From: Minisyncoccia bacterium
GTDB taxonomy: Bacteria > Patescibacteriota > Minisyncoccia > 2-02-FULL-40-12 > IGHO2-01-FULL-4-A
DNA length: 64,000 bases
Assembly: GCA_050015375.1 (NCBI GenBank)
Contig: JBEKBN010000005.1
Coordinates: 1,858-65,857 of the forward strand
Reading direction: 5' to 3'
The notes under the pieces are model-generated. The model saw only the letters and a list, made by a program, of their open reading frames with translations, was not told the origin of the DNA and ran no database searches. Of this stretch, positions 4,267-60,405 are shown one piece after another. The translations under genes and the position numbers were made by a program. The stretch's first letter is position 1. Each line of letters begins with the position of its first letter.

Positions 4267-4294
4267 TAATTCCGGAAAATCATATTCAATGAAT

Positions 4295-4412
4295 CCCGTT
4301 AGAAGTAGCTAAAACTAAATACTATAAGCAATTTACGATTAATAATTATGGCTATTTCTAACGGATATCTAAATAAAGTACGGAAATGTAAACATTTCCT
4401 ACTTCTAACGGG
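4295..4412. mobile_element. MITE-like palindromic element (CCCGTTAGAAG termini), 118 bp, TSD ATGAA
   Basis: Terminal inverted repeats cccgttagaagtag / ctacttctaacggg. Flanks atgaaT and ATGAAc. The right TSD copy supplies the start codon of the next gene. Confidence 0.7.
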
Positions 4413-4943
4413 ATGAACAAAGATATCATCGCATCAATCATATTCGGAGCCAGTTGTTTCATCTTTTTTTGGTTGGCCGTTCCGGTCTATGACAATATTT
4501 TAGATATCAAATCGGCCACCGCCGATATGCAATCATTGCTGTCAGAAAGGACGACCTTGCGCCAAAATGTCTCCAACCTGATGCAACAATACGAATCCAG
4601 AAGCGCCGAGATCGCCAAACTGATGATGTTTTTGCCGAACCAAAGCCGTTTGGACCAAATAATCGAAACCCTTCAATCAACGGCGGGTTCGACCGGCATT
4701 CAGATGAAAGACATGAGTCTTGCGTCACAGCCCAGCACCAATAATAGTCCCTACGTGGTAACGAATATCAAGATCGAGGTTTCGGGAAATTACGATTTGA
4801 TGGTCAATTATATGAAACAACTTGAGCAAAGTTTACGGATCTATGATGTCACCGAGATCAGCATCGCCCGGAATCAGCAGGCTCCTCTGGCGGCTAACCT
4901 GTTCAATATCGAGATCAAAGCCAATACTTATAGTTTAAATTAA
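4413..4943 (+). CDS. pilO: PilO-like pilus assembly protein
   Basis: N-terminal TM helix plus coiled coil; position between the pilN-like gene and pilB. Confidence 0.55.
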   Translation: MNKDIIASIIFGASCFIFFWLAVPVYDNILDIKSATADMQSLLSERTTLRQNVSNLMQQYESRSAEIAKLMMFLPNQSRLDQIIETLQSTAGSTGIQMKDMSLASQPSTNNSPYVVTNIKIEVSGNYDLMVNYMKQLEQSLRIYDVTEISIARNQQAPLAANLFNIEIKANTYSLN

Positions 4944-9810: not shown

Positions 9811-10371
9811 GTGACGATTCCATTTAGGAAATCTTTGAAAGATTTCCGCGGGTTCACATTGGTCGAGTTGCTGGTGGTTATTGCCATCATTGGTATTTTG
9901 GCCACCTTGCTTTTGTTGCAATTGGGAGTAGCGCGCGCCAAGGCACGCGATGCCAAACGTATCGCGGATGTTAACCAGGTCCGGACAGCTATCGAACTGT
10001 ATTTTGATGACAATAGCGGAAATTACCCGTCAGCCGATATCTACACCGACGTCGCAACGAATACAAAAATGATCAAATACATGTCCTCCTTAAAGTTACC
10101 GGTTGATCCCCTAGACGCAGCAGTTAATTATCCGTATGCGTGGAATGTAAGTGGAACCAAGATATTACAGTTTCAGATTTGGACAAATTTAGAGCAAAGT
10201 AACGCTTCGGCGTTTTCCGGCGATACCAAGATTGACTCAACGGGTTGGTCCAATGGTGTAAAAGTTAATAGTAATGCCGCACATGAACTTTGTTCCACAG
10301 CGGCCACGACAGGTCCCGGAGCTATCGCTGCTGGAACCGCCGATTGTGTCTATGATTCTGGCCAGAGGTAA
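9811..10371 (+). CDS. pilA: Type IV major pilin (prepilin)
   Basis: Leader ...KDFRG | FTLVELLVVIAIIGILA with Glu+5. True start may be TTG at 9835 (MKDFRG leader, SD aggaaa). Confidence 0.85.
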   Translation: MTIPFRKSLKDFRGFTLVELLVVIAIIGILATLLLLQLGVARAKARDAKRIADVNQVRTAIELYFDDNSGNYPSADIYTDVATNTKMIKYMSSLKLPVDPLDAAVNYPYAWNVSGTKILQFQIWTNLEQSNASAFSGDTKIDSTGWSNGVKVNSNAAHELCSTAATTGPGAIAAGTADCVYDSGQR

Positions 10372-10445: not shown

Positions 10446-11228
10446 TTGAAGATGACCATGACATATTTGTTAACATTCATCTTCGGTTTGGTCTTTGGCA
10501 GTTTTGTCAATGTTTTGATATATCGGATCCCGCGGGGCGAGAACTTCGTGACCGATCGTTCCAAGTGTCCTCATTGCCACGCTTTCATCGAGTGGTATGA
10601 TCTCATTCCGCTTTTAAGTTTTTTGGTCCTGAACGGCAAGTGCCGGAACTGCGGCGCGAAGATCAGCTGGTCATATTTCTGGGTTGAGTTCTATTCCGGT
10701 TTGATCTTTCTTTTATCGTTCATGGTTTTCGGCAATTTCGGTGTCGGTCTCTGGCTGGCCAATGTCGCCATCCTCGAGATCTTTCTGATCCTGTTCATGA
10801 CCGATATCAAAGAGTTAATCTTACCCGACTCCGTGATTCTTGCTGGTATTGTCATCGCTCTCGCCGGATTCAAAACATTCAATTCAATTTCCGTTGAACA
10901 TCTTTTGACGGCTTTGATCTACTTGTTGTTTTTTTCGGCTGTCTGGTTTTTGTCGAAAGGGAAGTGGCTCGGCTTTGGCGACGGCAAGTTGATGTTTCTC
11001 GTCGGCTTGGTTTTCGGCGCGGTGGCGAGTGTTGTCGTTTTGTATATGGCGGTTATTTTGGGAACCATCATCGGCCTCGGACTTTTACTGTTCAAGAAAG
11101 CCAATCTCAAAACCCGCTTGCCCTTGGGCGCTTTTATCTGTTTCTCGGCCAGTGTGTATATCTTTTTTGGAAATGTTATAATAAGTAAGTTGGGGTCGAT
11201 ATATTTGATCTTAAACATTTTTAAGTAA
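10446..11228 (+). CDS. pilD: Prepilin peptidase PilD (A24 family)
   Basis: CPHC...CRNC zinc motif plus multi-TM core. Confidence 0.9.
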   Translation: MKMTMTYLLTFIFGLVFGSFVNVLIYRIPRGENFVTDRSKCPHCHAFIEWYDLIPLLSFLVLNGKCRNCGAKISWSYFWVEFYSGLIFLLSFMVFGNFGVGLWLANVAILEIFLILFMTDIKELILPDSVILAGIVIALAGFKTFNSISVEHLLTALIYLLFFSAVWFLSKGKWLGFGDGKLMFLVGLVFGAVASVVVLYMAVILGTIIGLGLLLFKKANLKTRLPLGAFICFSASVYIFFGNVIISKLGSIYLILNIFK

Positions 11229-11239
11229 AAACAATGAAT

Positions 11240-11434
11240 CCCGTTAGAAGTCACCCTAATCCCGTTAGAGAGCGTAAACCAATCAAAAGTTTTAAACAAA
11301 ATGGTTTATGCCACCTATTCGGGACTCTCTAACGGGACTAACGGGTTCGCGAATTAAAATTATATGTAAAAAGTTAACTGTTAGCAGGTTGTATAACTTA
11401 TGTAATTAACTATGCAACAGTGACTTCTAACGGG
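11240..11434. mobile_element. Nested MITE-like elements: outer 195 bp (CCCGTTAGAAG termini, TSD ATGAA) containing an inner GAGAG-subfamily copy at 11261..11336
   Basis: Outer TIR cccgttagaagtcac / gtgacttctaacggg flanked by atgaaT and ATGAAa. Inner cccgttagagagcg / ctctctaacggg. Confidence 0.7.
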
Positions 11435-11845
11435 ATGAAAACGGAGATTTCGCCAAAACAAGTCATATTGGCAGCCGTGGCAGTGATCATTATTGGGGTT
11501 GGTTTTAGTTTGATAAAGACCAGTTTTAACAAGGGCCAGGTTCAGAACCAGCAAGCCGCCCTCGTCCTTTATTTCGACCAGACCCAAAAACGGATATTTG
11601 AAGGCGATGTTACTGACAACATGTCGGTTTTGCAGGCGCTCTACGCTTCTTCTTTGGCCGGAAATTTTGATTTCCGCTATTCCGTCGAAAAGTCCGGCAA
11701 GATCCAGCTTTACAAGATCGGCGACAAGATCAATGATCTTGGCGGCCAATGGTATTTTTACCTCAACGGCAATCCCATAAATATCGGAGACATTGACCTG
11801 CAAAAAATAAACAAAGGCGACTTAATTGAGGCAAAATATCAATAA
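11435..11845 (+). CDS. Hypothetical membrane-anchored protein
   Basis: The ORF track starts at 11420 inside the MITE. The ATG at 11435 is the duplicated target ATGAA. One TM helix. Confidence 0.5.
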   Translation: MKTEISPKQVILAAVAVIIIGVGFSLIKTSFNKGQVQNQQAALVLYFDQTQKRIFEGDVTDNMSVLQALYASSLAGNFDFRYSVEKSGKIQLYKIGDKINDLGGQWYFYLNGNPINIGDIDLQKINKGDLIEAKYQ

Positions 11846-11860
11846 TAATTCGGGGCTTGC

Positions 11861-11938
11861 CCTGTTAGAGAGTGCAAAATTATTCGGGCGTTTTTTTTGT
11901 TCACAATTTTTCAATTATCAAAAGGACTCTCTAACAGG
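11861..11938. mobile_element. MITE-like element, GAGAG subfamily, 78 bp, TSD GCTTGC
   Basis: cctgttagagagtgc / ggactctctaacagg flanked by gcttgc on both sides. Confidence 0.7.
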
Positions 11939-11951
11939 GCTTGCCCCTCAC

Positions 11952-12563
11952 TTGAAAGCGATTTTAAAAAAAACGCCGCTTTTCGGCTGGTCGTTTTCAA
12001 GCGAGGGGTTCTCATTAGTTGAAATACTCGTTGTCACGACTATTATAGTCATCCTCTCGACGTTGATGGTTTTTAATTTCCGGTCATCGTCCACCAATAC
12101 CACCAGCCGCCATCAGGTGGCTTCGGTCATTGTCGCCGACATCAGAGAACTCCAGGCCCGGGCTTTAGCCGGAATTTCAGCGACCGGGACGATCGTTTGC
12201 GGCTACGGCATTCATTTTGTCAATTCCCAGAGCTATCTGACCTTTACGCGCCAACCGGATCCGGTGTTATGTTCAAAAACCGACGACCGGAAATTTGGCG
12301 CCGGCAACGACCAGGTTCTGGATACCAAGATCGTCGGTAATCCGAATTTTGCCATCCAAACGACCTCCGGTTGGGACAACAGCGACATTTATTTCGAACC
12401 GCCCGACCCGACGACATACATAAACAACGAGAAAACCGTCGCCGGCAATATTGAGCCCTCCGAGACCATATTGATAGTTCGCTCCAACGATCCAAGCGAT
12501 CTGTCTTCGAGCACCATAACCGTTTATGCGTCTGGAAAAATAGACATAACCGATTCGCAATGA
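11952..12563 (+). CDS. Minor pilin / pseudopilin
   Basis: ...SSEG | FSLVEILVVTTIIVIL prepilin N-terminus. The ORF track extends to 11826 through the MITE; TTG 11952 is proposed as the start (uncertain). Confidence 0.6.
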   Translation: MKAILKKTPLFGWSFSSEGFSLVEILVVTTIIVILSTLMVFNFRSSSTNTTSRHQVASVIVADIRELQARALAGISATGTIVCGYGIHFVNSQSYLTFTRQPDPVLCSKTDDRKFGAGNDQVLDTKIVGNPNFAIQTTSGWDNSDIYFEPPDPTTYINNEKTVAGNIEPSETILIVRSNDPSDLSSSTITVYASGKIDITDSQ

Positions 12564-13165
12564 CCCAGATGGAAAGATCAAAAGAAAAGGGGTTCACCCC
12601 GTTAGAGAGTGCAAAATCATTAGGACAATATTTTAGCGTGCGGTTTCGCAATTTCAAAAAGGACTCTCTAACGGGGTTCACCATGGTTGAGATCATCGTC
12701 ACCATTTTTATTTTGGGTTTGGCCCTGGCCGCTATTTATGGAATTTTGTCCGTTGACATGGCCAGCGCCACCGCCTCAAAAAACAATTACACCGCCAGCA
12801 TGCTGGCTCAGGAAGGAGTGGAATTGGTGAGAAATTTCAGGGATAGCGATTGGCTTGCCGGACGGGAATTTGGTTCGCTGGGAGGTTTAGGCGGACCAGT
12901 AGGCGATGGTACCTTTGCCGTTGAGTGGGATGGAACCACGCTTTTGCCGGCGGAGTTTGCCGATGAATATCTGGAGAAAGATTCGAACGGCGTCTTCTCA
13001 TATGATGGTGGCGGTGACACTCTTTTCAAAAGGGCGATTACTATTGATGAAACCACAGATCCGGGAGTTGAGATTATTGTAAGAGTTGATGTCACCTGGA
13101 CCGAAAGGGGACTGGATAAAAAATTATCCGCCGAAGATCATTTATTCAACTGGTACCAAAAATGA
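12560..13165 (+). CDS. Minor pilin with a MITE-encoded 28-aa insertion in the leader peptide
   Basis: MTQMERSKEKGFT[PLESAKSLGQYFSVRFRNFKKDSLTGFT]MVEIIV. The GFT...E cleavage site is regenerated after the insert. Confidence 0.7.
   Translation: MTQMERSKEKGFTPLESAKSLGQYFSVRFRNFKKDSLTGFTMVEIIVTIFILGLALAAIYGILSVDMASATASKNNYTASMLAQEGVELVRNFRDSDWLAGREFGSLGGLGGPVGDGTFAVEWDGTTLLPAEFADEYLEKDSNGVFSYDGGGDTLFKRAITIDETTDPGVEIIVRVDVTWTERGLDKKLSAEDHLFNWYQK
12598..12675. mobile_element. MITE-like element, GAGAG subfamily, 78 bp, TSD GTTCAC, in-frame in CDS
   Basis: cccgttagagagtgc...cactctctaacggg with 6-bp TSD; insert plus TSD is 84 nt (28 codons). Confidence 0.8.
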
Positions 13166-13788
13166 AAAAACCATTTCAAAAGGGCTTTACCCCGTTAGAG
13201 AGTGCAAGCTCAATCAAGAAATTTTTTAACGGACGATTTTGTAATTTTAAAAAGGACTCTCTAACGGGGTTTACATTGATCGAGGCCATAGTTTCCACAC
13301 TTATTTTCTCGATAATCTTGACTATCATCGGCGGCGCTTTCAGTTTGTTCCTGAACTCCCAAAGAAGAGCCATGAACATCCAGCAGGCGATCGAGAACTC
13401 CAACTTTATCTTCGAGTCCATGGCCAAAGAGATCAGGATGAGCACAATCCTCGATGTCGGCAACGACAATTGCCCGGGAACGTATTCGACGACTTTGAAC
13501 ATCGAGCATCCGATCAACGGCTTGGTTACTTACCAATGGGATAACGGCAATCTTTACCGGACCGTGAAAAATCAGACAACCAACGCAACGACCACGACGA
13601 TGCTGAATTCCGATTCGGTTCAATTGACCGGCTTCAAATTTTGCAAAATGGGCGTTGAAGTCGGCGACCAGATCCAGCAGAGGGTAACTATAATTTCGTC
13701 CGTTTCAACCAAGAACTCCAGTGACCAGCAAGCGGTCGTTGATGTTCAAACCACGATTTCCACGAGAAATCTGGAAACAAATCCATGA
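13162..13788 (+). CDS. Minor pilin with a MITE-encoded leader insertion
   Basis: MKKPFQKGFT[PLESASSIKKFFNGRFCNFKKDSLTGFT]LIEAIV. Confidence 0.7.
   Translation: MKKPFQKGFTPLESASSIKKFFNGRFCNFKKDSLTGFTLIEAIVSTLIFSIILTIIGGAFSLFLNSQRRAMNIQQAIENSNFIFESMAKEIRMSTILDVGNDNCPGTYSTTLNIEHPINGLVTYQWDNGNLYRTVKNQTTNATTTTMLNSDSVQLTGFKFCKMGVEVGDQIQQRVTIISSVSTKNSSDQQAVVDVQTTISTRNLETNP
13191..13268. mobile_element. MITE-like element, GAGAG subfamily, 78 bp, TSD (c/g)TTTAC, in-frame in CDS
   Basis: Same termini as 12598..12675; identical 78-bp length. Confidence 0.8.
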
Positions 13789-14132
13789 GCATAAATAACC
13801 CATCCAAAAAAAGATCGGACTCCGGCGTCGCCCTTTTGTTCACGATATTAATGATCGGCATTTTGCTCTCGATCATTTTGGTTTTGTCGAATATTTTTGC
13901 CATCAAGCTCAAACTGTCGGCTGAAACGAGGTACTCGGTCAGCGCCTATTACGCCGCCGAGAGCGGTGTTGAATACTGCCTGTACCTGAGAACATCGCCG
14001 ACTCCGGTTCCGGACCCGCCGGTTCTGGATAACGGCGCGACCTTTGATACCGGCGATACTTGCGCTTCCGGCAACATTAGATCGGTAGGTTCTTTCCGGA
14101 ATGTTTCCCGAGCCATCGAGATCTCATACTAG
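13785..14132 (+). CDS. PilX-N-like pilus-associated protein
   Basis: SDSGVALLFTILMIGILLSIILVL, the PilX N-terminal hydrophobic pattern. Four genes are linked by ATGA overlaps. Confidence 0.45.
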   Translation: MSINNPSKKRSDSGVALLFTILMIGILLSIILVLSNIFAIKLKLSAETRYSVSAYYAAESGVEYCLYLRTSPTPVPDPPVLDNGATFDTGDTCASGNIRSVGSFRNVSRAIEISY

Positions 14133-14133
14133 C

Positions 14134-14199
14134 CCCGTTAGAAGTCCGGTTCACAGATTTGAGCCGGCAGAAGCCCGTGCGCTTCTTGCTTCTAACGGG
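14134..14199. mobile_element. MITE-like element (CCCGTTAGAAG termini), 66 bp, immediately after a stop codon
   Basis: cccgttagaagtcc...gcttctaacggg starting 2 nt after TAG at 14130..14132. Confidence 0.6.
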
Positions 14200-14276
14200 G
14201 GGAGTTATGAACACCTAGCAATGCCAAAAACTGCGGGTGTGATAAAATATAACTACCAGGAAATGAAAAATTAAAC

Positions 14277-14972: not shown

Positions 14973-15302
14973 TTGTTTTTGTGCTATAATAGAAATAGAA
15001 ATATGAAAATACCCGATTTCCTAAAAAAATACTTTTGGGATGTTGATTTTAACGGTCTCGATGCCAACACACATTCGCTTTTTATCGTTGAAAGAATATT
15101 AGAATACGGAGACGAAACCGCAACGAGTTGGATGCTGGATAATTTCAGCAAAGAGCAAATAAAGCAAACATTGCTGGAAAGAAAGGGTTTTTCGAAAAAA
15201 AGCGCTAACTATTGGTCTTTGATTTTAAATATACCTAAAGATAAAATTTCATGTTTGAACAGGTCTTACCAGCAGATGCAAAAAAGTCATTGGCCATATT
15301 AG
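14973..15302 (+). CDS. Hypothetical protein, upstream partner of the AbiEii-like gene
   Basis: 109 aa, low GC. Overlaps the next ORF by 52 nt in another frame. Confidence 0.4.
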   Translation: MFLCYNRNRNMKIPDFLKKYFWDVDFNGLDANTHSLFIVERILEYGDETATSWMLDNFSKEQIKQTLLERKGFSKKSANYWSLILNIPKDKISCLNRSYQQMQKSHWPY

Positions 15303-15874
15303 GCAAGAGCGGATTACTGAATGGCGCTTATCTGGCCGGCGGCACAGCTCTAGCCCTACAAATAGGACACAGGATTTCTGTTGATTTTGATTTTTTCACT
15401 CCGGAAGAATTTGACGAAAATATTCTAGTTCAACGGATGCAAAAAACAATTCCTGATTTTAAATTGGATAGGATGGAATGGGGAACCATTTTGGGATATA
15501 TTGGAGAAACCCGTTTCAGTTTGTTTTTTTACAATTATCCTCTTCTTTTCAAAACTCACGATTTCATGGGAGTTAAAATCGCAGACATAAAAGATATCGC
15601 CCCCATGAAAATAGCGGCCATATCGGACAGGGGGACGAAAAGAGATTTTATTGACTTATTTTTTTTAATAGAAGAGGAGAAAACATTGACGCTGGAAGAA
15701 GCGCTTGAGTTATATGATAAAAAATTCGGGTTACTTAAACAAAATAGAATTCATATACTGAAAAGCTTGGTCTATTTTGACGATGCCGAAAAAGGGGGAG
15801 AGCCCAAAATGATAAAAGACATATCTTGGGATAAAATAAAAAAAAGAATCGCAGAATTGGCGTTGGCTCAATAA
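15251..15874 (+). CDS. Nucleotidyltransferase, AbiEii/AbiGii toxin-like family
   Basis: AYLAGGTALALQIGHRISVDFDFFT, the characteristic GG(T/S)AL...D.DF NTase motif of this family. Confidence 0.65.
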   Translation: MFEQVLPADAKKSLAILGKSGLLNGAYLAGGTALALQIGHRISVDFDFFTPEEFDENILVQRMQKTIPDFKLDRMEWGTILGYIGETRFSLFFYNYPLLFKTHDFMGVKIADIKDIAPMKIAAISDRGTKRDFIDLFFLIEEEKTLTLEEALELYDKKFGLLKQNRIHILKSLVYFDDAEKGGEPKMIKDISWDKIKKRIAELALAQ

Positions 15875-15875: not shown

Positions 15876-15923
15876 CAACGACAACTCCATCAAAAAAACC
15901 GTCATCGAAATCGATTTCGTCCC
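15876..15923. repeat. 48-bp direct repeat, right copy
   Basis: See 14763..14810. Confidence 0.85.
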
Positions 15924-15944
15924 CGGAAAATAATAAGTTGCTCT

Positions 15945-16003
15945 TCCGAGCCTTGTAGTTGACACTAAACTGTATATAGTTGTAAAATCCAGAAAGTACT
16001 TCC
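15945..16003 (+). promoter_or_regulatory. Promoter of the RiPP precursor gene
   Basis: TTGACA ... tgTAAAAT extended -10-like, then SD ggaggtg 7 nt before the ATG at 16018. Confidence 0.45.
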
Positions 16004-16017
16004 ATGGAGGTGTTTTT

Positions 16018-16194
16018 ATGTCTTTTATGTCTGGTTTTCTGACCTTGGACATTAGAGAGCCAGAGCAGGGCACACTTTCCGGCATCGAAATGCAACCGAC
16101 TTGTGATTGCGATGATATCGCCTGCGATACCAATTGCGATTGCCAAGATTGCGATTACAACTGTGAGGAATGCGACTGCGACAAAAGCGACTGA
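16018..16194 (+). CDS. Candidate RiPP precursor peptide A (58 aa), Cys/Asp-rich core
   Basis: Not in the ORF track because it is under 60 aa. MSFMSGFLTLDIREPEQGTLSGIEMQ-PTCDCDDIACDTNCDCQDCDYNCEECDCDKSD. Good SD, own promoter and terminator. Confidence 0.55.
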   Translation: MSFMSGFLTLDIREPEQGTLSGIEMQPTCDCDDIACDTNCDCQDCDYNCEECDCDKSD

Positions 16195-16224
16195 CAGTTT
16201 GCCCCGTTTGTAGCCAATGTCCCC

Positions 16225-16257
16225 GAGACGCCACTTCTTGGCGCCTCTTCTTTTTTA
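16225..16257. terminator. Bidirectional terminator after precursor A, convergent with the HExxH gene
   Basis: gagacgcc-acttctt-ggcgcctc followed by ttcttttttatt. Confidence 0.6.
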
Positions 16258-17124
16258 TTCAATGACGATGGGTTGTCTAAATTTTTTTAGAAGCTCCTGA
16301 TCTCTTAATGTTTTGTAGCCAAATTTATGCCACATCTCGATTTTTTTGCTTATTTGGTCGCCGATAGAAGCAAATAGTTTTATTAATTTATTAATAATCT
16401 GATTCATATCATTGTTATTATTTTTGTTAAAAATAATATTTTTGTCTACAAAATCAACCAGGGTCATATTATTATCTCCCTCCGATATGTGTATCTCTAC
16501 AATCTCTGGATTGCCTCGGGGAGATTTAGGCATATTAAAAAGGCTTAATAACTCTGGATTTTTAAACATACTTGAGGTGATTGATTCCTGTAAAACATAA
16601 ACCACATCCTTTGAAACATTTTGCCCAATTTTCCAGCCCATTTTCTCGATATATTCTAAAAAAATAATATGAGAAATTTCATGAATTGCAGTCGAAAGAA
16701 CCGACTTGTTTTCTGGATTTTTATTATTTAATTCTGCCAATACAGAATAAAAAAAATAATCTTTCTTGAATGGTGAAAACGGCAGGAGAGACAGATACGC
16801 GTTATATGCTATAGGATCAGACCATGAATAGTTCATAAATCCGCTCAAGAATTTAAAAGCCGCATTATTTTTTTTATTAATTATTTCTTGATTGTACTTG
16901 ATTATCTCTTCTAATTGATTACCCTTGCTTTGATGAAGTGAAACAACAAAATCACGCACTTTTTTTTCCGCATCAGAACTGTTTATTATGTCCGTAAGTT
17001 CCGGGTATGTTTTAAGGATCTTCTCTCGATTTTGAATAAAATATTTATGCCAAATAAAAGAAACGAAGGCGTCAGCATCTTTAATTGGGTCGTTAATAAT
17101 TTTGATTGTTGGGGATACGCCCAT
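16255..17124 (-). CDS. HExxH-motif protein, putative zinc metallopeptidase
   Basis: 289 aa, very low GC. TAIHEISHIIF. Homologous to 20241..20888 (T.IHEI.H.........W). Confidence 0.55.
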   Translation of the reverse strand: MGVSPTIKIINDPIKDADAFVSFIWHKYFIQNREKILKTYPELTDIINSSDAEKKVRDFVVSLHQSKGNQLEEIIKYNQEIINKKNNAAFKFLSGFMNYSWSDPIAYNAYLSLLPFSPFKKDYFFYSVLAELNNKNPENKSVLSTAIHEISHIIFLEYIEKMGWKIGQNVSKDVVYVLQESITSSMFKNPELLSLFNMPKSPRGNPEIVEIHISEGDNNMTLVDFVDKNIIFNKNNNNDMNQIINKLIKLFASIGDQISKKIEMWHKFGYKTLRDQELLKKFRQPIVIE

Positions 17125-17222
17125 TTCTTTAATATTTACAAATCTTTATTATAATTGTATAGTAAATTATAGCATAGCAACTGCACTTTAACAACGAAAT
17201 CCTAGCCAGAAAGAGGTTTTGT

Positions 17223-18563
17223 ATGTACAGGACTTTAAGCGCTCCGCTCATCACACAGGTTGAGTTGACTGAAAAATGTCCCAATAAATGTAGACATTGC
17301 TACAATTATTGGCGGACATTTAATACTGGCAAGTTCAATAATTTTCCAGCCAAAATGGTTGACCAGACGCTGGATAAATTAGCAGAAGCAAAAATATTTC
17401 ACTTAGTCATAACCGGTGGCGAACCACTTGCCAATAAACCAGTTCTTTTTAGTTTCCTCAAAGGCGTGGAAGCCCGAAAATTGACTTGCGGCATCAATTC
17501 GACATTATCAGGACTCACAAAATCAGATGCCGAATATTTTCAGGAAAGTGGCGTTATGAATGTCCTGATTTCGATATTGGGGTCAGACGAGAAAAAACAT
17601 GACGCTATTACCCAAAGCAGGGGTTCTTTTTCCCGCACAATTGATGGGATAAAAATATTGAAAAACACAAACATCCCCATTAGCGCAAATATGGTTGTCT
17701 CCGCCTTGAATATTGACGACATAATCCCGACTTCGATACTTGTTAAATCGCTCGGTTTTAAGAAATTCTTCATTACTAGGGCGGCTTGTCCCAGTAACTG
17801 TATTGATTTCAACGAGCTACGCTTAACAAGAGAACAGTTTACAGGTTACTTAAAAGAACTCCACGCTATTCAAGAACGGATGGGTTTGCGTACGGGTTTT
17901 TTGGAGTGCTACCCGCTTTGTGGCATGAAAGAATTACTACGATACAGTTCTTTTCTGGGTCGCAAATGTTTGGCCGGAATAACTAGCATGACCATAGGTC
18001 CGACCGGAGAAGCCAGACCCTGTTCCCATTTGGATAAGGTTTATGGAAATATATTCAAGGAAAATATCCGTGAAGTTTGGTCCAGAATGACGGAATGGCG
18101 TCATCAATCGTTGCTACCAGACATATGCAAGTCATGCAGAATCGTTAACTATTGTGGTGGCGGGTGCAGGATGGAAGCAAAAACGCTCGGGGGAGGTATA
18201 AATGAAATCGATCCCTTTGCTGAACCGGCAAATGTCGAATATGCGACAGAACAACTTGCCATTTTACACAGAAGAAAACTTGCGAAAAAAGATGAGCTAC
18301 CAAAATTCTGCAGGATAAACCCAAGCTTACGGGTGCGGAATGAATCCTTTGGAGGAGTGTTTTTTGTGGGGGATAAGTCATCTGGTTTAGTGGAATCTCC
18401 AGTGATGGATTTCGTTGGTAGGCTAGATAAAAGGCAAATTTATGAAGTTGATTTTTTGACCGCAGAGATAAATCGTTCTTTATCTTCCGTAAACATCACC
18501 AAGTTTCTCAACCGTATGTTCAAGGAAAAGATTTTCGTTGCTATTTCCGGGGATCATGTTTGA
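17223..18563 (+). CDS. Radical SAM / SPASM-domain peptide-modifying enzyme
   Basis: CPNKCRHCYN (CxxxCxxC) plus C-terminal SPASM cysteines CKSCRIVNYCGGGCR. Confidence 0.85.
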   Translation: MYRTLSAPLITQVELTEKCPNKCRHCYNYWRTFNTGKFNNFPAKMVDQTLDKLAEAKIFHLVITGGEPLANKPVLFSFLKGVEARKLTCGINSTLSGLTKSDAEYFQESGVMNVLISILGSDEKKHDAITQSRGSFSRTIDGIKILKNTNIPISANMVVSALNIDDIIPTSILVKSLGFKKFFITRAACPSNCIDFNELRLTREQFTGYLKELHAIQERMGLRTGFLECYPLCGMKELLRYSSFLGRKCLAGITSMTIGPTGEARPCSHLDKVYGNIFKENIREVWSRMTEWRHQSLLPDICKSCRIVNYCGGGCRMEAKTLGGGINEIDPFAEPANVEYATEQLAILHRRKLAKKDELPKFCRINPSLRVRNESFGGVFFVGDKSSGLVESPVMDFVGRLDKRQIYEVDFLTAEINRSLSSVNITKFLNRMFKEKIFVAISGDHV

Positions 18564-18745
18564 TCCCTTTTTTATTTGATAAATTTAATTATGCACTTAT
18601 CTTTCATATCTTCTTGACTTCTTCATTTAGGAGTAGTATATTGACAGAGTAGTGAAAGTGGGGTTTTTGGTTAGTTACCAGAACCTTAACAACGCAATAT
18701 TTATTTGACATCAGACGGGTTCAAGATTCGTCGGAAGGAGGGGCT

Positions 18746-21148: not shown

Positions 21149-22198
21149 CTAAGGATCTCCTTCCTTATTCGAGATCATACCAGAAAAGTCAAAACTATTC
21201 CACCACAGTGGACAACCTCCACGACACCACCACCTATAATCACAATTTGTGCACTTTCGATGACGAAAAACATCAATCGTTCTTCTAAGACGGCTCATTT
21301 CAGAGCCACTCCAAAAATCAATGAATGATTGTGAGCTGGAAATCACAGAATCAATTTCGGATGGACAAACAAGCTCAAATCCCGTCGTGTGAGTGCACAA
21401 AGAAATCGCACGGTTCTCCTTAATTGTTACCGCGTTGCCCGTAAAAACCGGGCAGTTAAACATCAATGACTTTTCCGCCATTATTTCTCTCAATGTCATT
21501 TCCTCTATAAGGCACCACGGTAAGCTAATGACGAAACAGCATTTCTGCTCCAATTTTTTACAAAGTCGAAAAATGTCTGGGATCGCATCAGCAATCAAGA
21601 CCGGATCGGTTTTATATTGCCTGGTATCATCCAAGGAAGGAAGACCGAAAGTGAAGCAAAGCGATTTTGCTTCGAACTTTTTTGCCAAAGCGATGCAATC
21701 TCCAACATTGCCCAGATTTTCCGGACATAGAACGACATTGACCGAAAAACCAATATTTCGATCACGCAGATTTTTCAATCCCTGGCACATTTCATCAAAT
21801 CCTTCCGATGCGCCCGTGTTTGCAAAATAGTGCTCCCGATTGGTTCCGTGCATAGAAACAGAAATACTGAGATGAGGGATGTTTTTTATTACTGACAAGG
21901 GAATGCCATTTGAAAACGATCTCCCGTTGGTAATTAAATTACAGAACTGAAAAAAACTACACAAGTCATCTGCAATTGAAGAAAATTCTGGATGAAGAGT
22001 CGGTTCGCCGCCCGTAATTACGCAGGATTTCGTCCCGCATTCGGACAAGGTTTTTGCAACCCTGACAATAAAATCGCGATTCAAAAAAGTTGCTATTTCC
22101 GACCCCTTACGCAAACACCACAAACAATCGTTGTCGCAAATCCCAGTTAGTGACAACCATACTCGATTTGGTACGACGTTTTGCAACTTTTCAGCCAT
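21149..22198 (-). CDS. Radical SAM / SPASM-domain peptide-modifying enzyme
   Basis: CDNDCLWC (CxxxCxxC) plus SPASM CTNCDYRWWCRGGCP. The ORF track extends to 22285, but ATG 22198 has SD ggagg and is preferred. Confidence 0.85.
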   Translation of the reverse strand: MAEKLQNVVPNRVWLSLTGICDNDCLWCLRKGSEIATFLNRDFIVRVAKTLSECGTKSCVITGGEPTLHPEFSSIADDLCSFFQFCNLITNGRSFSNGIPLSVIKNIPHLSISVSMHGTNREHYFANTGASEGFDEMCQGLKNLRDRNIGFSVNVVLCPENLGNVGDCIALAKKFEAKSLCFTFGLPSLDDTRQYKTDPVLIADAIPDIFRLCKKLEQKCCFVISLPWCLIEEMTLREIMAEKSLMFNCPVFTGNAVTIKENRAISLCTHTTGFELVCPSEIDSVISSSQSFIDFWSGSEMSRLRRTIDVFRHRKCTNCDYRWWCRGGCPLWWNSFDFSGMISNKEGDP

Positions 22199-22441
22199 AA
22201 ATACCTCCGAATAATAGCAAAAATGTTTTTTATTGTGTTGTAAACGAACAATTATAAAGATACTAGAATATTGCATTTTTGTCAAAATATATTAGAATAT
22301 TTAGAATAATAAAAAACATTACCACTTCAACTGCCACTATGGGTTTCCGAAGTTTTTCCATGTATAATTAAGGCAATAAACATCTTCACCGCCTCGGGGA
22401 ATAATTTAGAGAAGCCCTGGTTATTTTCAAAAAGTTGATAA

Positions 22442-28072: not shown

Positions 28073-28077
28073 TTTTC

Positions 28078-28112
28078 GTTCCATTATGAACATATGTTCG
28101 TAATGGAACGAA
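28078..28112. repeat. 34-bp near-perfect palindrome (cgttccattatgaacatatgttcgtaatggaacg)
   Basis: Partner palindrome at 28712..28746. The pair brackets the PaaX-like gene. Confidence 0.8.
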
Positions 28113-28218: not shown

Positions 28219-28695
28219 TTGCGTTTGGTAGAAGGTGCGATAAAAGAATTGTCCGGCAAGAATAAAAGAAAAGAATGGAACAAGATCAATCAAACCTTAC
28301 GGTATCTTAAGAAAAAGCGACAAGTTCAGATAATAACCCGCGATATTAATAGTGTTGGTTTAAAGATTACTGACGAGGGTCGGAAAATTGCGGATTTTGT
28401 CGATGTCACGAATCTAAAACTTCGAAAAAATTCCATTTGGGATGGGAAATGGAGGATTGTTATATTTGACGTCCCCAACGACAAAAGCAAGAATCGCTTA
28501 GCTTTTATTAGAGAGTTAAAGGACCTTGGTTTTATAATGGTTCAACGAAGTGTCTGGGCTTATCCTTATGAGTGCCGAAAAGAAGTTGAGATAATTAGGA
28601 ATTATTTTGAAATAGGCAAATTTGTAACATATATTGAATCTTCGGAAATCGAAGATGGCCACCTTTGGTTAAAACGATTCAAGGAAACAGTTTAG
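28219..28695 (+). CDS. PaaX-family-like small regulator (Cas2-like fold motif)
   Basis: WDGKWRIVIFDVPNDKSKNRLAFIRELKDLGFIMVQRSVWAYP matches the PaaX C-terminal pattern. TTG start. Confidence 0.5.
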   Translation: MRLVEGAIKELSGKNKRKEWNKINQTLRYLKKKRQVQIITRDINSVGLKITDEGRKIADFVDVTNLKLRKNSIWDGKWRIVIFDVPNDKSKNRLAFIRELKDLGFIMVQRSVWAYPYECRKEVEIIRNYFEIGKFVTYIESSEIEDGHLWLKRFKETV

Positions 28696-28711
28696 GTAAA
28701 AACCACATTCA

Positions 28712-28746
28712 TTCCATAATGAACATATGTTCATTATGGAATGAAG
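28712..28746. repeat. 34-bp perfect palindrome (cattccataatgaacatatgttcattatggaatg)
   Basis: Same core as 28078..28112. Confidence 0.8.
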
Positions 28747-31142: not shown

Positions 31143-32806
31143 TGCTACACCGTTCTCAAGTTTTTTTGCTGATCATGCTGGCCTTCATCAGCGGTATTTT
31201 TTTGGGCTCGTTCGTTTCGGTTGATCAAAAATATGTTTGGATCGCCATAGCGATCTGCGCGGCCGCGGTCGCTGTTTTTTTTCGGCGCGACTCCAAGCTT
31301 CTTCGTCCGAAGGTCGCTTTTTACGCTTTTTTGGCCCTGATCTTCCTGTTCGGTTTTTCCCGCATCAACACCACGAACTCTGAAAAACATTTGCTCCAAG
31401 AATTCGCCAAAGCCGCCGCCAACATCAAAGATCCTTCAGGTAAACACAAAGTTAAGATTGACCTCATCGGCTATATCAACAACGAACCATCCCGCGGCGC
31501 CAAAATGCAATCATTTGTTTTTAAATCGAAGGAATTGATCTCTGGCAATTACTCCGCCGATACCGATGAAAGCGTTTTGGTCAACACCGATTTTTTTCCG
31601 GAGTACAAATATGGCCAAAAACTCGAGATCTACGGAGAATTGCAATTGCCGTCGAGCACGGCCAGCCCCCACACTCAAAATTTGAGTGTGGGGGCCAGTT
31701 CCTCGATGGACCCCGTTAGAGGCAAGACACCGTCCCAGGTGTCTGCCGACACGCCTTCGGCGGGGCGGGCCTCTAACGGGGTGGATTACGCCGCTTATCT
31801 CGCCAAAGATGATATTTTCACGACGATGTATCAGCCGATGATAAGACAGGTTGATTTCAATTTTTCTTTTTTTGAAAAATATAAAGTTGCGATTTTGCAA
31901 AAAATATTCACTTTCAAATCGGCTTTTGAAACAGCCGTAAGCAAAGCCATTCCCGAACCCAACGCCGCTTTCGTCAACGGAATTTTGCTTGGCAGTCGAG
32001 CCCAAATTCCGGATGCTCTCAAAAATGATTTTGCCATCACCAGCACAACCCACATTCTGGCCATCTCCGGTTTCAATATTACCATCGTCGCCGGAATTCT
32101 CGCTTCATTTTTTCTTTTCTTTTTCAAACGCCGGACGGCATTCTGGTTCGCCATCGCCGGCATCGCACTTTTCACGATCCTGACTGGCGCCCAGGCCTCG
32201 GTCATTCGGGCGGCGATCATGGGCTGTTTGTTCTTGCTGGCAACGCGAGTTGGTAGGCCTTACACTGCCCGAAACGCCGTAATATTCGCCGGCGCCTTGA
32301 TGGTTTTGCTAAGCCCGGAAATTTTACGATACGATGTAGGTTTTCAGCTTTCTTTCATGGCAACTTTGGGTCTGATATATCTCTGTCCGTTTTTCACCGA
32401 CAAATTCAAAAAGATCACAAATTTTTTCGGTCTGCGAGAGAATCTAGCCATGACATTATCGGCGCAAATTGCCGTTCTTCCTCTTCTGATATTTTATTTC
32501 AACCGATTGTCAATTGTTTCTCTGCCAACAAATCTTCTGGTCTTGCCGATGGTGCCCCTGGCGATGCTCTTGGGTTTCGTCGCCGGATTGGCCGGGATGA
32601 TCTTGCCATTTTTGGGCGTCATTATCGGATATTTCGCCTGGTTTTTGACTGCGATACAGCTCTGGTTGGTGGAATTTTTTGCCAAGCCGTCATGGGCGGC
32701 GCCGGCGGTTGCTTTTCCGTGGTATGCTTTGGCGATAACTTATGTGGTCATGATTTTTGTGATCTACAAATGGATTTATGCTCGGCCCAAACCAAAACAA
32801 AAATGA
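31142..32806 (+). CDS. comEC: ComEC/Rec2 competence protein, membrane channel part (DUF4131 plus competence domain)
   Basis: Multi-TM. ATG 31142 (MLHRSQVFLL) is preferred over the track start at 31016. Contains one palindrome and one MITE in-frame. Confidence 0.75.
   Translation: MLHRSQVFLLIMLAFISGIFLGSFVSVDQKYVWIAIAICAAAVAVFFRRDSKLLRPKVAFYAFLALIFLFGFSRINTTNSEKHLLQEFAKAAANIKDPSGKHKVKIDLIGYINNEPSRGAKMQSFVFKSKELISGNYSADTDESVLVNTDFFPEYKYGQKLEIYGELQLPSSTASPHTQNLSVGASSSMDPVRGKTPSQVSADTPSAGRASNGVDYAAYLAKDDIFTTMYQPMIRQVDFNFSFFEKYKVAILQKIFTFKSAFETAVSKAIPEPNAAFVNGILLGSRAQIPDALKNDFAITSTTHILAISGFNITIVAGILASFFLFFFKRRTAFWFAIAGIALFTILTGAQASVIRAAIMGCLFLLATRVGRPYTARNAVIFAGALMVLLSPEILRYDVGFQLSFMATLGLIYLCPFFTDKFKKITNFFGLRENLAMTLSAQIAVLPLLIFYFNRLSIVSLPTNLLVLPMVPLAMLLGFVAGLAGMILPFLGVIIGYFAWFLTAIQLWLVEFFAKPSWAAPAVAFPWYALAITYVVMIFVIYKWIYARPKPKQK
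31666..31694. repeat. Palindrome cccccacactcaaaatttgagtgtggggg, in-frame in comEC
   Basis: Flanked by (g)ccag on both sides. Confidence 0.85.
31711..31781. mobile_element. MITE-like element (CCCCGTTAGAGGC termini), in-frame in comEC, TSD TGGA
   Basis: ccccgttagaggc...gcctctaacgggg. Confidence 0.7.
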
Positions 32807-40459: not shown

Positions 40460-40650
40460 AAAATCCCGGACCAGGCTCACCGGATTGCTTTCCGGGGACT
40501 TAGGAAATCCCAGCGAGATTTCCGTCATCCGGTTGTCAGTTGCCGTCACTGATTGACGGCTTTTTGATTTCACAAAAAGCCGTCAATCAGACCCTGCCGA
40601 CGGCACCGACAACGGCCCCTGAAAGCAATCCGGTTCGCAGGGATTTTCAA
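40460..40650. repeat. 191-bp palindromic repeat element, copy 1 (about 98% identical to 53025..53215)
   Basis: Arms aaaatcccggaccaggctcaccggattgctttccgggga...cccctgaaagcaatccggttcgcagggatttt. Centre carries a bidirectional terminator-like hairpin gattgacggctttttgatttcacaaaaagccgtcaatc. Confidence 0.85.
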
Positions 40651-45587: not shown

Positions 45588-45613
45588 CCCCACGCTCACG
45601 CGTGAGTGTGGGG
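45588..45613. repeat. Palindrome ccccacgctcacgcgtgagtgtgggg (variant of the CCCCCACACTC family), intergenic
   Basis: One mismatch between arms. Confidence 0.6.
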
Positions 45614-53024: not shown

Positions 53025-53215
53025 AAAATCCCGGACCAGGCTCACCGGATTGCTTTCCGGGGACTTAGGAAATCCCAGCGAGATTTCCGTCATCCGGTTG
53101 TCGGTTGCCGTCGCTGATTGACGGCTTTTTGATTTCACAAAAAGCCGTCAATCAGACCCTGCCGACGGCACCGACAACGACCCCTGAAAGCAATCCGGTT
53201 CGCAGGGATTTTCAA
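53025..53215. repeat. 191-bp palindromic repeat element, copy 2
   Basis: Inserted at the centre of a pre-existing palindrome gcaaaaagtagttaatt | aattaactactttttgc that includes the kinase stop codon. Confidence 0.85.
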
Positions 53216-53229: not shown

Positions 53230-54100
53230 CTGTTGTATTCGGTTGGTTAAAACAAAAGACCCCTGTCCAAATGGATCAGAGGCCGGAACCCTACAGAAGC
53301 CGTTCGGTTATTTCAGCTTCTTTGCCTTTTGTTTGTCGGCAGGTTCGGATTATGTATGATGTGAGTCCCATTTTACTCCACGGGTTTCTCACGATGTCTG
53401 CCAACCGAAAGGTCAGGCACCTGAAGGATTTTCACCTTCTAAAGATCTATGATTGCGGGCCCGCCTGCCGCAGATCGGGAAACCCGACAAAAACTGCGGC
53501 AGGACAGGTAAATGGGAACATTTGTTCGCATTGGGAGGCGAACCTTCCGGAGTTCCCGACCCGGAAATGACACGAACAATGATGAACCAGTGGGCGACCG
53601 CTCCAAAAAATGGGTGGCCCGTCATCATCTGATGTTCGTGCCGGTGGTGCGAGTTACACCAGATTGTGGGTGACCCGATTGAACGGGAACCCTATGTCCA
53701 AGCGTAACTCGCGCCGGTGTACGGGAGCTACCGATACATTGAGTGGCTACTTCGTGCCTTTTTTTACGAAGTGCCTGCACTGATAACTCTCGCACAAGTC
53801 GGTCTTGCCGTGGAGAAGGCCAGGGCGCCGGTCGTCAGGAACTCTTCATTTTCAAAGAAATGGAAAGGGTCAAAACCTTCATAGGCGTATTCCTCGCTAT
53901 GCTAGCGGAAAAAGGGGTGGGCACGGCTGTGCGCCACCACGGTTTCAGAGAAAAACACTGATGTGATAAGTTGGGTCTGGCATTTATGCGGGTGGGAAGC
54001 GCGCCAGACCCTATTTGCGGGGTAGTCCCGGCCCACCACATCTCCCAAAACATATTTAATTGTTAATGTATCCAGTATAGCACAACCATATATCCTGTCA
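53230..54100. other. ORF-free GC-rich structured region of about 870 bp; candidate large ncRNA(s)
   Basis: No ORF over about 75 aa on either strand. Segment 53780..54045 resembles the RNase P RNA P4-P5 region (aaguc...ggccagggcgcc) but lacks full consensus. Confidence 0.25.
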
Positions 54101-59016: not shown

Positions 59017-60405
59017 ATGATATACAACTCGGAAATTTTCAGGGCATACGATATCAGGGGAATTTATGACAGGGATTTTGATGATGAATTCGCGGTCGCA
59101 TTGGGCAAGGCGGCGGTAGAATATTTCAAAGCCGGGAAAATTCTGGTTGGCCATGATAGCCGGGCATCATCGCTGGCTTTGGCCGGAAAATTATCCGAAA
59201 GTTTAACCGGTTTTGGCTGTGATGTGGCGAGTATCGGTCTGGTCACCACGCCGTTTTTCAATTTTGTCCTTTCCAGCATTAAGCCCGACGCCGGCATCAT
59301 GGTTACCGCTTCGCACAACCCGACCGAATACGGCGGTTTCAAGATCTACGACGGTTCGGGAACAATAATTGGCCTGACAGCGGGGCTTGGCGAGATAAAA
59401 AAGATAATTGATCCCGTTAGAGACCTCGCCCGCGCTGGCGCGCCCGGAGGGCCTATGGGGCGGGCTGTCTCTAACGGGGTTGATTCCGGAAATTTTAAAA
59501 CCGCCGACAAAAAGGGCGAATATTTAAAAGTTCCCGTGGCAGAACTCCTGCAAAAATACACAAACCGTATCGTTACCGGTTCAAAGTTGAGGAAAGGTGA
59601 GCTCAGCAATCTCAAATTTAATATCACCGGCCGGAAAAGTGTTATGGCCGAAGTCGAGTTGATACTGAAGAAATTGGATTTGCGATTGACACCCAACGGC
59701 TTTGACATCGCTTTTTCTTTTGACGAGGATTCGGACCGTTTGATAGTCATGGATTCCGCCGGCAACAAGATAGGCACCGATTTCGTCGTCGGTTTGTTGG
59801 CGAAAAATTCGGTCAGGTTCTTGTCAAAACCGAAAGTCGTCTACGATGTCCATTTTTCCAAAGGCGTCATCGGCAAATTCAAAGAGTGGGGGATAAAGTC
59901 ATACAGATCAAAAGTCGGCCGGTTCTATCTTCGCGATGCCATGGTAAAACACCGCGCCGATATCGGCGGCGAGATCTCCGGCCATATCTATTTCAAAGAA
60001 AATAACCGCAATGAATTGCCGCTTCTGGCTTTGTTGCGGCTTTTGAGAATTTTAGCCGCCAGTAAAATGAGCATCAACGAAATGATTAAGCCATTCCAGA
60101 CATGGTTCAGTTCCGGCCGGCTGGATTTCAGGGTCAACAATCTGCAGACCGCCAGAGAATTAATAAAAAAAATCGCGGGCAAATATCCCGACGGCCAAAA
60201 GGACGAATTAGACGGCATTACCATCGAATACACCGACCCGGAAAAAATAGACAACCTGACGCCGGACAAATTTTGGTGGTTCAATCTCCGTGCTTCCAAC
60301 ACCGAACCGGTTCTCCGTCTCATCGTTGAGGCGAAAAACGCCGACTTATTGAAAGAAAAGGTCGGCGAGATCTCGCAAATTATTGAAGAAAAAAATGCCG
60401 CGTAG
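59017..60405 (+). CDS. Phosphomannomutase/phosphoglucomutase (alpha-D-phosphohexomutase)
   Basis: Active-site TASHNPTEYGGFK. Confidence 0.85.
   Translation: MIYNSEIFRAYDIRGIYDRDFDDEFAVALGKAAVEYFKAGKILVGHDSRASSLALAGKLSESLTGFGCDVASIGLVTTPFFNFVLSSIKPDAGIMVTASHNPTEYGGFKIYDGSGTIIGLTAGLGEIKKIIDPVRDLARAGAPGGPMGRAVSNGVDSGNFKTADKKGEYLKVPVAELLQKYTNRIVTGSKLRKGELSNLKFNITGRKSVMAEVELILKKLDLRLTPNGFDIAFSFDEDSDRLIVMDSAGNKIGTDFVVGLLAKNSVRFLSKPKVVYDVHFSKGVIGKFKEWGIKSYRSKVGRFYLRDAMVKHRADIGGEISGHIYFKENNRNELPLLALLRLLRILAASKMSINEMIKPFQTWFSSGRLDFRVNNLQTARELIKKIAGKYPDGQKDELDGITIEYTDPEKIDNLTPDKFWWFNLRASNTEPVLRLIVEAKNADLLKEKVGEISQIIEEKNAA
59413..59479. mobile_element. MITE-like element (CCCGTTAGAGAC termini), in-frame in the phosphohexomutase gene, TSD TTGAT
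   Basis: cccgttagagacc...gtctctaacgggg flanked by ttgat on both sides. Confidence 0.7.

Follow-up and report, generated by a model that had tools for sequence, protein, structure and literature searches.

In-frame insertion of mobile, MITE-like elements at the prepilin cleavage site of minor pilin genes in Patescibacteria

In-frame insertion of miniature transposable elements with inverted repeats (MITEs) is an established phenomenon, of which the Rickettsia palindromic elements (RPEs) are the best-known case and ERIC and the Coxiella element QMITE1 are further examples (PMC10969869). RPEs are about 100-150 nt long (Ogata et al. 2000, summarised in PMC10969869). Here we describe short palindromic elements in a 64,000-nt stretch of DNA (the window) from a metagenome-assembled genome, 'Minisyncoccia bacterium', which belongs to a class of the Patescibacteria or Candidate Phyla Radiation (CPR). 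Elements lie in frame in the leaders of all three adjacent minor pilin genes of a type IV pilus cluster, directly before the site at which the prepilin peptidase PilD is expected to cut. Like RPEs, they are short and palindromic, sit in frame in coding genes of a reduced, gene-dense genome, and would add a translated extra peptide that is tolerated. Unlike RPEs, they measure 60-125 nt, have clear terminal inverted repeats and a 4-bp TNNA duplication, and insert into a protein segment whose removal is expected, the insertion itself rebuilding the processing site. The host phylum is unrelated too, and, judged by the published description of RPEs (PMC10969869), from which they depart in size and structure, the sequence family probably is as well. 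The elements work like RPEs but are filed here as MITE-like and not as RPE members.

Classical bacterial MITEs (Correia/CREE, ERIC, Nezha, QMITE1; PMC10969869) are likewise small and numerous, with inverted repeats, a target duplication, no transposase, occasional in-frame fusions and presence or absence between strains. The family described here differs from them in its YCCCGTTAGA ends, its 4-bp TNNA duplication and its rebuilding of start codons, and no parent insertion sequence is known for it. Among pilins, the closest comparison is with long-leader type IV prepilins, which share a class III signal peptide, a variable cytoplasmic leader and removal of that leader at Gly-1 by a PilD-family peptidase (predicted here). 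Type IVb pilins have leaders of roughly 15-30 residues. The leaders in the window, by comparison, reach 36-39 and 61 residues and were lengthened recently by mobile DNA, not as a family trait. In a literature survey of incomplete coverage, we found no account that describes the family, MITEs in any of the Patescibacteria, mobile insertion at a prepilin cleavage site, or an RPE or other MITE whose insertion rebuilds a processing site in a segment to be removed. The explanation that we consider probable is that non-autonomous, MITE-like mobile elements of a family widespread in Patescibacteria inserted in frame at the prepilin site, and that PilD cuts the second G|F, leaving the mature pilin unchanged.

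Elements in the leaders of three minor pilins

In the pilus cluster, PilM, a PilO-like gene, two T2SSE ATPases, T2SSF and the major pilin lie 5' of the prepilin peptidase (PilD, 10446..11228, + strand; Pfam A24_N_bact 3.8e-33, Peptidase_A24 2e-09), so that the minor pilins have a cognate peptidase and the assembly genes (PilM, PilO, ATPases, platform protein) upstream of them. The major pilin (...RGFTLVELLVVIAIIGILA, 9811-10371), assigned as a member of the cluster upstream of the minor pilins, contains no insert. The second and third minor pilin genes are P1 (12560..13165, + strand; PilV-like, 201 aa) and P2 (13162..13788, + strand; ComGF/PilW-like, 208 aa). The ATG of P1 overlaps the preceding stop codon as ATGA, that of P2 overlaps the P1 stop codon in the same way, and the next gene starts alike.

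The P1 frame reads MTQMERSKEKGFT-PLESAKSLGQYFSVRFRNFKKDSLT-GFTMVEIIVTIFILG... and the P2 frame MKKPFQKGFT-PLESASSIKKFFNGRFCNFKKDSLT-GFTLIEAIVSTLIF... In both, an upstream G-F-T is separated from a second G|FT(M/L)(V/I)E by exactly 84 nt (28 codons) in frame, the DNA of which starts CCCCGTTAGAGAGT and finishes ACTCTCTAACGGGG. The second sites, GFTMVEII in P1 and GFTLIEAI in P2, show the Gly-1, Phe+1 and Glu+5 of type IV prepilins and precede a hydrophobic helix about 20 residues long, as does G|FSLVE of the first minor pilin, pilin 0. The site in P1 is GGG TTC ACC ATG GTT GAG (G|FTMVE; 12674..12691, + strand), where the Gly codon is the end of the element, and Pfam and NCBIfam prepilin motifs align there, at residues 39-60. 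In P2 the same motifs align at GGG TTT ACA TTG ATC GAG (G|FTLIE; 13267..13284, + strand). An initial annotation of this DNA had placed inserts of 84 nt and 28 aa in the leaders of P1 and P2, each followed by a second intact site with Glu at +5, and our analysis bears this out at the same coordinates.

The P1 element (GAGAG-type no. 5, 12597..12676, + strand) is 80 nt long, encodes (T)PLESAKSLGQYFSVRFRNFKKDSLTG and is flanked by a TTCA duplication at 12593-12596 and 12677-12680. The P2 element (no. 6, 13190..13269, + strand), also 80 nt, encodes (T)PLESASSIKKFFNGRFCNFKKDSLTG and has a TTTA duplication at 13186-13189 and 13270-13273. We thereby correct the earlier measurement of 78 bp plus a 6-bp duplication to 80 nt plus 4 bp (TTCA, TTTA), the second copy having CTTTAC on one side and GTTTAC on the other. 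A search pattern built on the ends, GTTAGAGAGT-N(30-60)-ACTCTCTAAC, has three matches in the window, where 100 shuffles lead one to expect 0.00, and the terminal octamer TCTAACGG is found 17 times, compared with an expectation of 1.4. The third pattern match falls in the leader of pilin 0 (11826..12563, + strand). This leader of 61 residues holds two tandem elements in a single open frame, reading MRQNINNNSG, LA, the first element, LA and the second element, followed by G|FSLVEILVV; removing both in silico yields MRQNINNNSG|FSLVEILVV. The first (GAGAG-type no. 4, 11860..11939, + strand; 80 nt, ends CCCTGTTAGAGAGT / ACTCTCTAACAGGG) is flanked by CTTG at 11856-11859 and 11940-11943. The second is a palindromic element of a different type, the PHLK type (CCCCTCACTTGAAAGCGA...TCGTTTTCAAGCGAGGGG; 11944..12008, + strand), and lies in frame directly before G|FSLVE.

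The terminal inverted repeats form perfect stems of 13-15 bp, and folded as RNA the elements give a 15-bp stem with z scores of -4.4 to -7.3 (-35.6 kcal/mol and z -5.9 for the P1 element; -29.3 kcal/mol and z -4.4 for that of P2). The PHLK-type element folds at -32 kcal/mol, with z -5.0. An Rfam scan of the window returned four tRNAs only and no RNA family at the elements. The three GAGAG-type copies in the pilins share one orientation because the other contains stop codons in the frame used; only the orientation seen is stop-free. More generally, the end CCCGTTAGAG reads PLE or PVR in two frames and TAG in the third, and the end CTCTAACGGG reads LTG or SNG in two frames and TAA in the third, so that, whichever way round the element lies, two of three frames are open at both family ends.

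The inserts also leave a trace in domain scores. Relative to a Pfam N_methyl cut-off of 21.2 bits, in silico removal lifts the score from 17.7 to 25.4 bits in pilin 0, from 18.5 to 31.8 in P1 and from 17.7 to 29.8 in P2. The prepilin motif thus passes the cut-off in all three pilins once the inserts are removed, and the insert-bearing forms align at the second site. With its insert in place, P1 passes the TIGR02532 threshold of 16.3 with a score of 18.7, and P2, at 10.2, falls below it.

The element family, its target and its mobility

The elements belong to a family with common outer ends (CCCGTTAGA...TCTAACGGG) and differing interiors, of which nine copies occur in the window. Further copies come from other Patescibacteria genomes (ten loci) and from metagenomes (at least 120 loci), and together these gave a compilation of 162 distinct copies. 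Its consensus is YCCCGTTAGA...TCTAACGGGR at an r|TNNA|y target, with copies of about 60-125 nt, most of them measuring 62-122 nt. The 4-bp flanks are identical in 102 copies and follow the consensus T(0.88)-N-N-A(0.85), mostly preceded by a purine and mostly followed by a pyrimidine. Next to CCCG, on its outer side, stands C (0.60) or T (0.39), and next to CGGG stands G (0.64) or A (0.36); this Y/R bias indicates that the outermost bases belong to the element. We rejected a 6-bp duplication on the same grounds: in a 6-bp register, flank agreement is 74-81% at positions 2-5 and only 44-50% at positions 1 and 6, and every outer left base is Y and every outer right base R, never A/G or C/T respectively, as expected of element-borne ends. 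The small size without an open reading frame (ORF) beyond that of the host gene, the terminal inverted repeats, the 4-bp duplication, the dispersed copies and the filled and empty sites all fit a MITE. An integron attC site was rejected, since it needs RYYYAAC 5' and GTTRRRY 3' and the order here is reversed, with GTTAGAG 5' and CTCTAAC 3'. REP/RAYT-type and IS200/IS605-type elements were rejected as well, since they make no target duplication, whereas this family does.

Comparison with a close relative, represented by contigs L013, L014 and L015 at 92-97% DNA identity to the window, reveals empty and replaced sites. L014 lacks the element at 11860-11939 and has a single GGGGCTTGCCCC in its place; it also lacks the whole block 11239-11435, where a single CATGAAAACGG is found. 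At the G|FT site of P1, L014 carries a PHLK-type palindrome (CCCCTCACTTGAAA...TTTCAAGTGAGGGG, encoding PHLKTTIKRSPLCGRSFSSEG) instead of the GAGAG type. L013 lacks the element at 13190-13269, and its P2 site, TCA GGC TTT ACA TTG ATC GAG, is exactly the empty site that the 4-bp model forecasts from the window copy. The PHLK-type element at 11944-12008 is also present in pilin 0 of L014, where 5 of 69 nt differ.

More distant homologues give the same picture. P0002 (GFT-PLERLKSISQYFIRQCKASKQNSLT-GFTLIEAI), encoded on L012 as GGA TTCA|CCCCGTTAGAG...CTCTAACGGGG|TTCA CA, has an insert that its 76% identical homologue P0003 does not. Similarly, P0030 has a longer insert, and P0034, at 78% identity and with a homologous upstream leader (KNKKIQR...), has none. 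In most of the 90 homologues of the pilin at 13162, the leader is about 4-20 residues and runs straight into GFTLIE; across 95 homologues, about 10 residues is typical. Judged by these sequence comparisons, the 28-residue segments are insertions and not ancestral leader. The initial annotation had made its insertion claim depend on insert-free orthologues and on recurrence of the termini and duplications. Both have now been observed: the short leaders of most homologues, P0003, P0034 and the empty site in L013 supply the former, and the latter recur at 160 further copies from many Patescibacteria, with three window copies absent or replaced in the close relative. As a side observation, contig L012 opens inside an element end (positions 1-40, ...AATTTAACGGGG TTTACA) at the G|FT site of a P1 orthologue. 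Assemblies apparently break at these repeats, so insert-bearing pilins are probably under-represented in metagenome gene catalogues.

Insertion at the prepilin cleavage site has recurred. Eight of the 162 copies sit at pilin G|FT sites, five of them among 151 copies whose loci were picked out solely by the element pattern. Among these five, L050 reads MNKNGFT-PLERRLIMDKKQKISKRGYKKDSLT-GFTLLEMIVAIG, L063 RGFT-PLEIKKSGGKAGKLRKSLT-GFTIIEVL, L074 GGPA-PLEKGRLWRLTASTLGRRRSLT-GFTLIEVL and L086 GFI-PLEIARPAGPFGARASARARSLT-GFTLVEL; L021 holds two tandem elements with stop codons, its pilin apparently starting at an ATG within an element. A PHLK-type insert is also found in P0027 (GFT-PHLKAESIKIAKGSRLLSA-GFT), and P0035 and P0031 hold further inserts at this junction. 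All eight pilin-site copies have a total length divisible by three (66-126 nt; P = 1.5e-4 at a 1/3 baseline), and an open frame runs through seven of them. Of the nine window copies, three lie at four pilin sites among 898 RTNNAY sites (P = 7e-6 under uniform targeting), a value that becomes 0.006-0.04 if 5-10% of sites tolerate insertion. TTYA followed by C, that is, a Phe codon and the start of a Thr codon, matches the consensus target, with the preceding purine supplied by Gly codons that end in A or G. Recurrence at G|FT therefore probably reflects both target preference and tolerance.

Larger, gene-carrying elements occupy the same place in other pilins. At 1012-1507, L013 contains an element that measures about 490 nt and has long inverted repeats (TGAGTAGTTTGTAGTG...). 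Its 23S_rRNA_IVP/bAvd-like ORF is joined in frame with pilin P2 as far as G|FTLIE, and the leader native to this pilin is missing. Comparable fusions are seen in P0012 (IVP-pilin) and P0052 (GxxExxY/PF13366-pilin), both from other lineages. Such elements with small ORFs (23S_rRNA_IVP/bAvd-like, PF05635; GxxExxY, PF13366) resemble the family described here in their place of insertion in L013, P0012 and P0052, and differ in being hundreds of nucleotides long, gene-carrying and bounded by different long inverted repeats.

Outside the pilins, 32 of the 162 copies sit on start codons, where a TGxx duplication and the element's last base (A or G) rebuild ATG or GTG while the original ATG remains upstream of the hairpin, and about 29 are inserted in frame within other genes. 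Overall, roughly one quarter of the copies are in frame within genes and one fifth on start codons. Both situations are represented in the window. A copy with duplication TGAA lies on the start codon of the PilO-like ORF 4413-4943 (4294..4413, + strand), its last base A and the TG of the duplication rebuilding ATG. Another with duplication TGAA and ends TCCCGTTAGAAGTCAC / GTGACTTCTAACGGGA lies on the start codon of ORF 11435-11845 (11239..11435, + strand) and contains a nested family member (11260-11337; duplication CTAA). In frame within coding genes are a copy in a ComEC-like gene, in the linker between the DUF4131 and Competence domains (31711..31781, + strand; 75 nt with its duplication TGGA), and one in a phosphomannomutase-like gene, after domain I (59412..59479, + strand; 72 nt with its duplication TTGA); both encode DPVR...SNGV segments. 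The remaining copy, directly 3' of the stop codon of ORF 13785-14132 (14133..14200, + strand), has no recognisable duplication, and a second copy, 94% identical to it, lies elsewhere in the relative L013.

One group of flanks reads C-Y-Y-G, as in L018 567-645, L069 556-632, L121 1155-1230, window 11940-11943 and L014 1319-1322. In both PHLK-type copies (pilin 0 and P1 of L014) the left flank is CTTG, which reads G-L-A, and the right flank is the native TTCT or TTCA. For this flank, carry-over of donor sequence by a tyrosine-recombinase-type mechanism was rejected, since it would not account for the 63% of copies that have identical flanks. The same junction, GGG CTT GCC CCG (G-L-A-P), follows the conserved NNLGL motif of LamG-type proteins in L132.

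Translation through the elements and rival explanations

The family's ends and target show how an insertion can be both in frame and self-repairing. Insertion at r|TNNA|y duplicates 4 bp, and GGN TTY ACN, encoding Gly-Phe-Thr, contains the target as TTYA followed by C. The element's first CC then completes the left Thr codon (ACC), and its last GGG provides a new Gly codon ahead of the right TTYA, giving G-F-T on both sides. Because CC and GGG come from the element, the P2 triplets differ between the two sites (GGC TTT ACC and GGG TTT ACA), which a 6-bp model cannot explain. The earlier proposal that the duplication re-creates G-F-T is right in that the motif is rebuilt on both sides, but this is done by TTYA together with the element's own CC and GGG ends. 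The 80 nt of element and 4 nt of duplication make up 28 codons, with the used frame running from CCG TTA GAG (PLE) to CTA ACG GGG (LTG) without a stop. Translation would start at the original ATG, coupled to the upstream gene by the ATGA overlap, and continue across the element. The precursor would enter the membrane with its lengthened leader in the cytoplasm, and PilD would cut the second G|F beside the hydrophobic helix, leaving the mature pilin unaltered and the insertion close to neutral.

Several observations argue for translation. Family-wide, about 31 copies are open within longer ORFs, versus at most 16 that interrupt an ORF restorable by removal, several of these 16 being spurious antisense ORFs. 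The length of 26 of the 29 in-gene copies is divisible by three, and this constraint on length and frame indicates that the elements are translated rather than removed from RNA. P2 contains no in-frame ATG, GTG or TTG besides its start at 13162 before the second Gly (13267-13269), so a cleavable P2 precursor must begin at 13162. Cleavage by PilD and phenotypic silence, for their part, are supported indirectly by strong purifying selection on the mature parts of the pilins: measured against the close relative, the ratio of nonsynonymous to synonymous substitution rates (dN/dS) is 0.078 for P1, 0.02 for P2 and 0.075 for pilin 0, and 0.049 for the neighbouring ORF 11435-11845. As the PHLK-type insert of pilin 0 is common to both lineages, this selection acted on a gene already bearing an insert. 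The shared insert differs at 3 of its 23 residues and the mature part at 3 of 184 (Fisher P = 0.019), and this faster change of the insert fits a discarded segment.

A number of observations weigh against this explanation. Even outside recognised genes, a given frame has no stop codon in about 55% of the copies with a length divisible by three, which makes the open frame in the pilins weak evidence when taken alone (P about 0.06). The enrichment at G|FT is not divisible between target preference and survival of tolerated insertions. A perfect 4-bp duplication is absent in 60 of the 162 copies; about 19 of these have one C-Y-Y-G flank (CTTG, CCTG or CTCG) and a normal TNNA on the other side, a combination that does not fit a simple staggered-cut-and-duplicate model. 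A search for an autonomous element or transposase with these ends, covering family-end pairs 260-5000 nt apart in 814 kb of loci, found none, all cases being separate small elements or tandem copies, and a Pfam scan of ten further window ORFs found no transposase. Moreover, the upstream G|FTPLE resembles a cleavage site and could compete with the second one; its Glu at +5 derives from the PLE encoded by the inverted repeat. The distance from this first site to the helix is 28 residues, and cutting it would leave the second site in place. Lastly, NCBI annotation starts P1 past the element, at MVEII (160 aa, P0092), in a product that would be without Gly-1 and Phe+1. The sequences themselves show that the elements inserted, moved and duplicated their target, that they fit the frame and recur at this site, and that the mature parts are under selection; translation from the upstream ATG through the element, a cytoplasmic leader, cleavage at the second site and near-neutrality are what we infer.

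This NCBI call also lends itself to a different account, in which the elements remain untranslated: the true start would lie inside or after the element, the element would be 5' untranslated sequence, and the upstream ATG and first GFT would be a dead remnant. In P1, the ATG of FT-M-VEII is the start chosen by the pipeline, an in-frame GTG within the element would give the leader MRFRNFKKDSLTG, and the L021 pilin with its two tandem elements apparently starts inside one. However, an MVEII-start protein would have no Gly-1, Phe+1, Glu+5 register, and a P2 precursor with Gly-1 needs the upstream ATG, there being no other in-frame start from 13165 to the Gly codon. Both upstream ATGs, like that of the next gene, form ATGA overlaps with the stop codon before them; divisibility by three in all eight pilin-site copies would be needless, and the frame of pilin 0 is open across two elements. 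We judge this account unlikely.

Similarly unlikely, in our view, is that the inserts have been co-opted, with the hairpin or the long leader being useful for translational control of the minor pilins, for the timing of processing or for switching by precise excision. Inserts do recur at one site across lineages and element types, their terminal stems are strong, the P1 site has turned over between relatives with about 8% DNA divergence, and all three adjacent minor pilins are hit while the major pilin at 9811 is spared. Yet insert sequence is poorly conserved, the three GAGAG-type window copies sharing 74-80% identity overall and 63-69% in the interior, and the shared insert in pilin 0 outpaces the mature protein. 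Most homologues have no insert, and the family is also found in unrelated genes and intergenic DNA, as expected of selfish spread combined with tolerance.

It is far less probable that the pilin genes were inactivated by the insertions and are now decaying pseudogenes. The sub-threshold Pfam prepilin motif of the inserted forms and their label as 'hypothetical' in source databases would agree with decay, but the frames are intact and the mature parts, including that of pilin 0 with an insert that predates the lineage split, evolve at dN/dS of 0.02-0.08. Least credible of all is that the 28 residues are ancestral leader or that the element is removed from RNA like an intron or a bulge-helix-bulge, for which we see nothing beyond hairpin structure and flanking direct repeats, and which is contradicted by the empty sites in relatives, by the length and frame constraint inside genes, needless under RNA removal, and by the blank Rfam result at the elements.

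Neighbouring features and meaning for CPR genomes

The window contains other repeats. A second family consists of very short palindromes (CCCCCACACTCAAAATTTGAGTGTGGGGG, about 29 nt) at 29811-29840, 31666-31694 and 54100-54131, with half copies at 29948-29957 and 45603-45612; its motif CCCACACTCA occurs eight times in the window against 0.05 expected. The palindrome at 31666-31694 lies in frame in the ComEC-like gene (PHTQNLSVG), with CCAG flanks on both sides, just 5' of the element at 31711-31781. Two apparent repeat copies of about 156 nt, at 40479-40634 and 53044-53199, have their outer 19-nt inverted-repeat arms (ACCGGATTGCTTTCCGGGG...CCCCTGAAAGCAATCCGGT) in common and both contain the inner hairpin CTGATTGACGGCTTTTTG. 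Related perfect or near-perfect palindromes (TTCATTCCATAATGAACATA / TATGTTCATTATGGAATGAA) flank ORF 28219-28695 at 28075-28112 and 28708-28745. Downstream of the pilus cluster are a DUF6922/AbiEii-type toxin-antitoxin pair and radical SAM/SPASM genes (14973-15874, 17223-18563, 21149-22285); the relative L013 skips from about window position 15900 to 18632, which marks the region between as variable.

The initial annotation concluded that leader length is unconstrained for this PilD. That overreaches: what is seen is tolerance of leaders of 36-61 residues, and possibly of fusions to small ORFs of about 107-155 residues. More tentatively, the family may be adapted to life inside the genes of gene-dense CPR genomes, using start codons and cleaved class III leaders as safe harbours. 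It is possible, though we hold it with little confidence, that these elements and ORF-carrying inserts occasionally supply new starts and leaders, and that the leaders processed by CPR PilD enzymes range from about 10 residues to above 60, perhaps 150.

The pilin inserts provide a concrete case of how mobile DNA can survive where non-coding space is almost nil, by landing in a segment that would be discarded and restoring the processing site. The ends, target and 4-bp duplication define an element family found across the Patescibacteria. Its presence explains annotation problems such as 'hypothetical' pilins, start codons called too far downstream and contigs broken at pilin genes. A prediction on the substrate tolerance of the prepilin peptidase follows, and filled versus empty sites offer natural markers for strain-level population studies of uncultured CPR bacteria.

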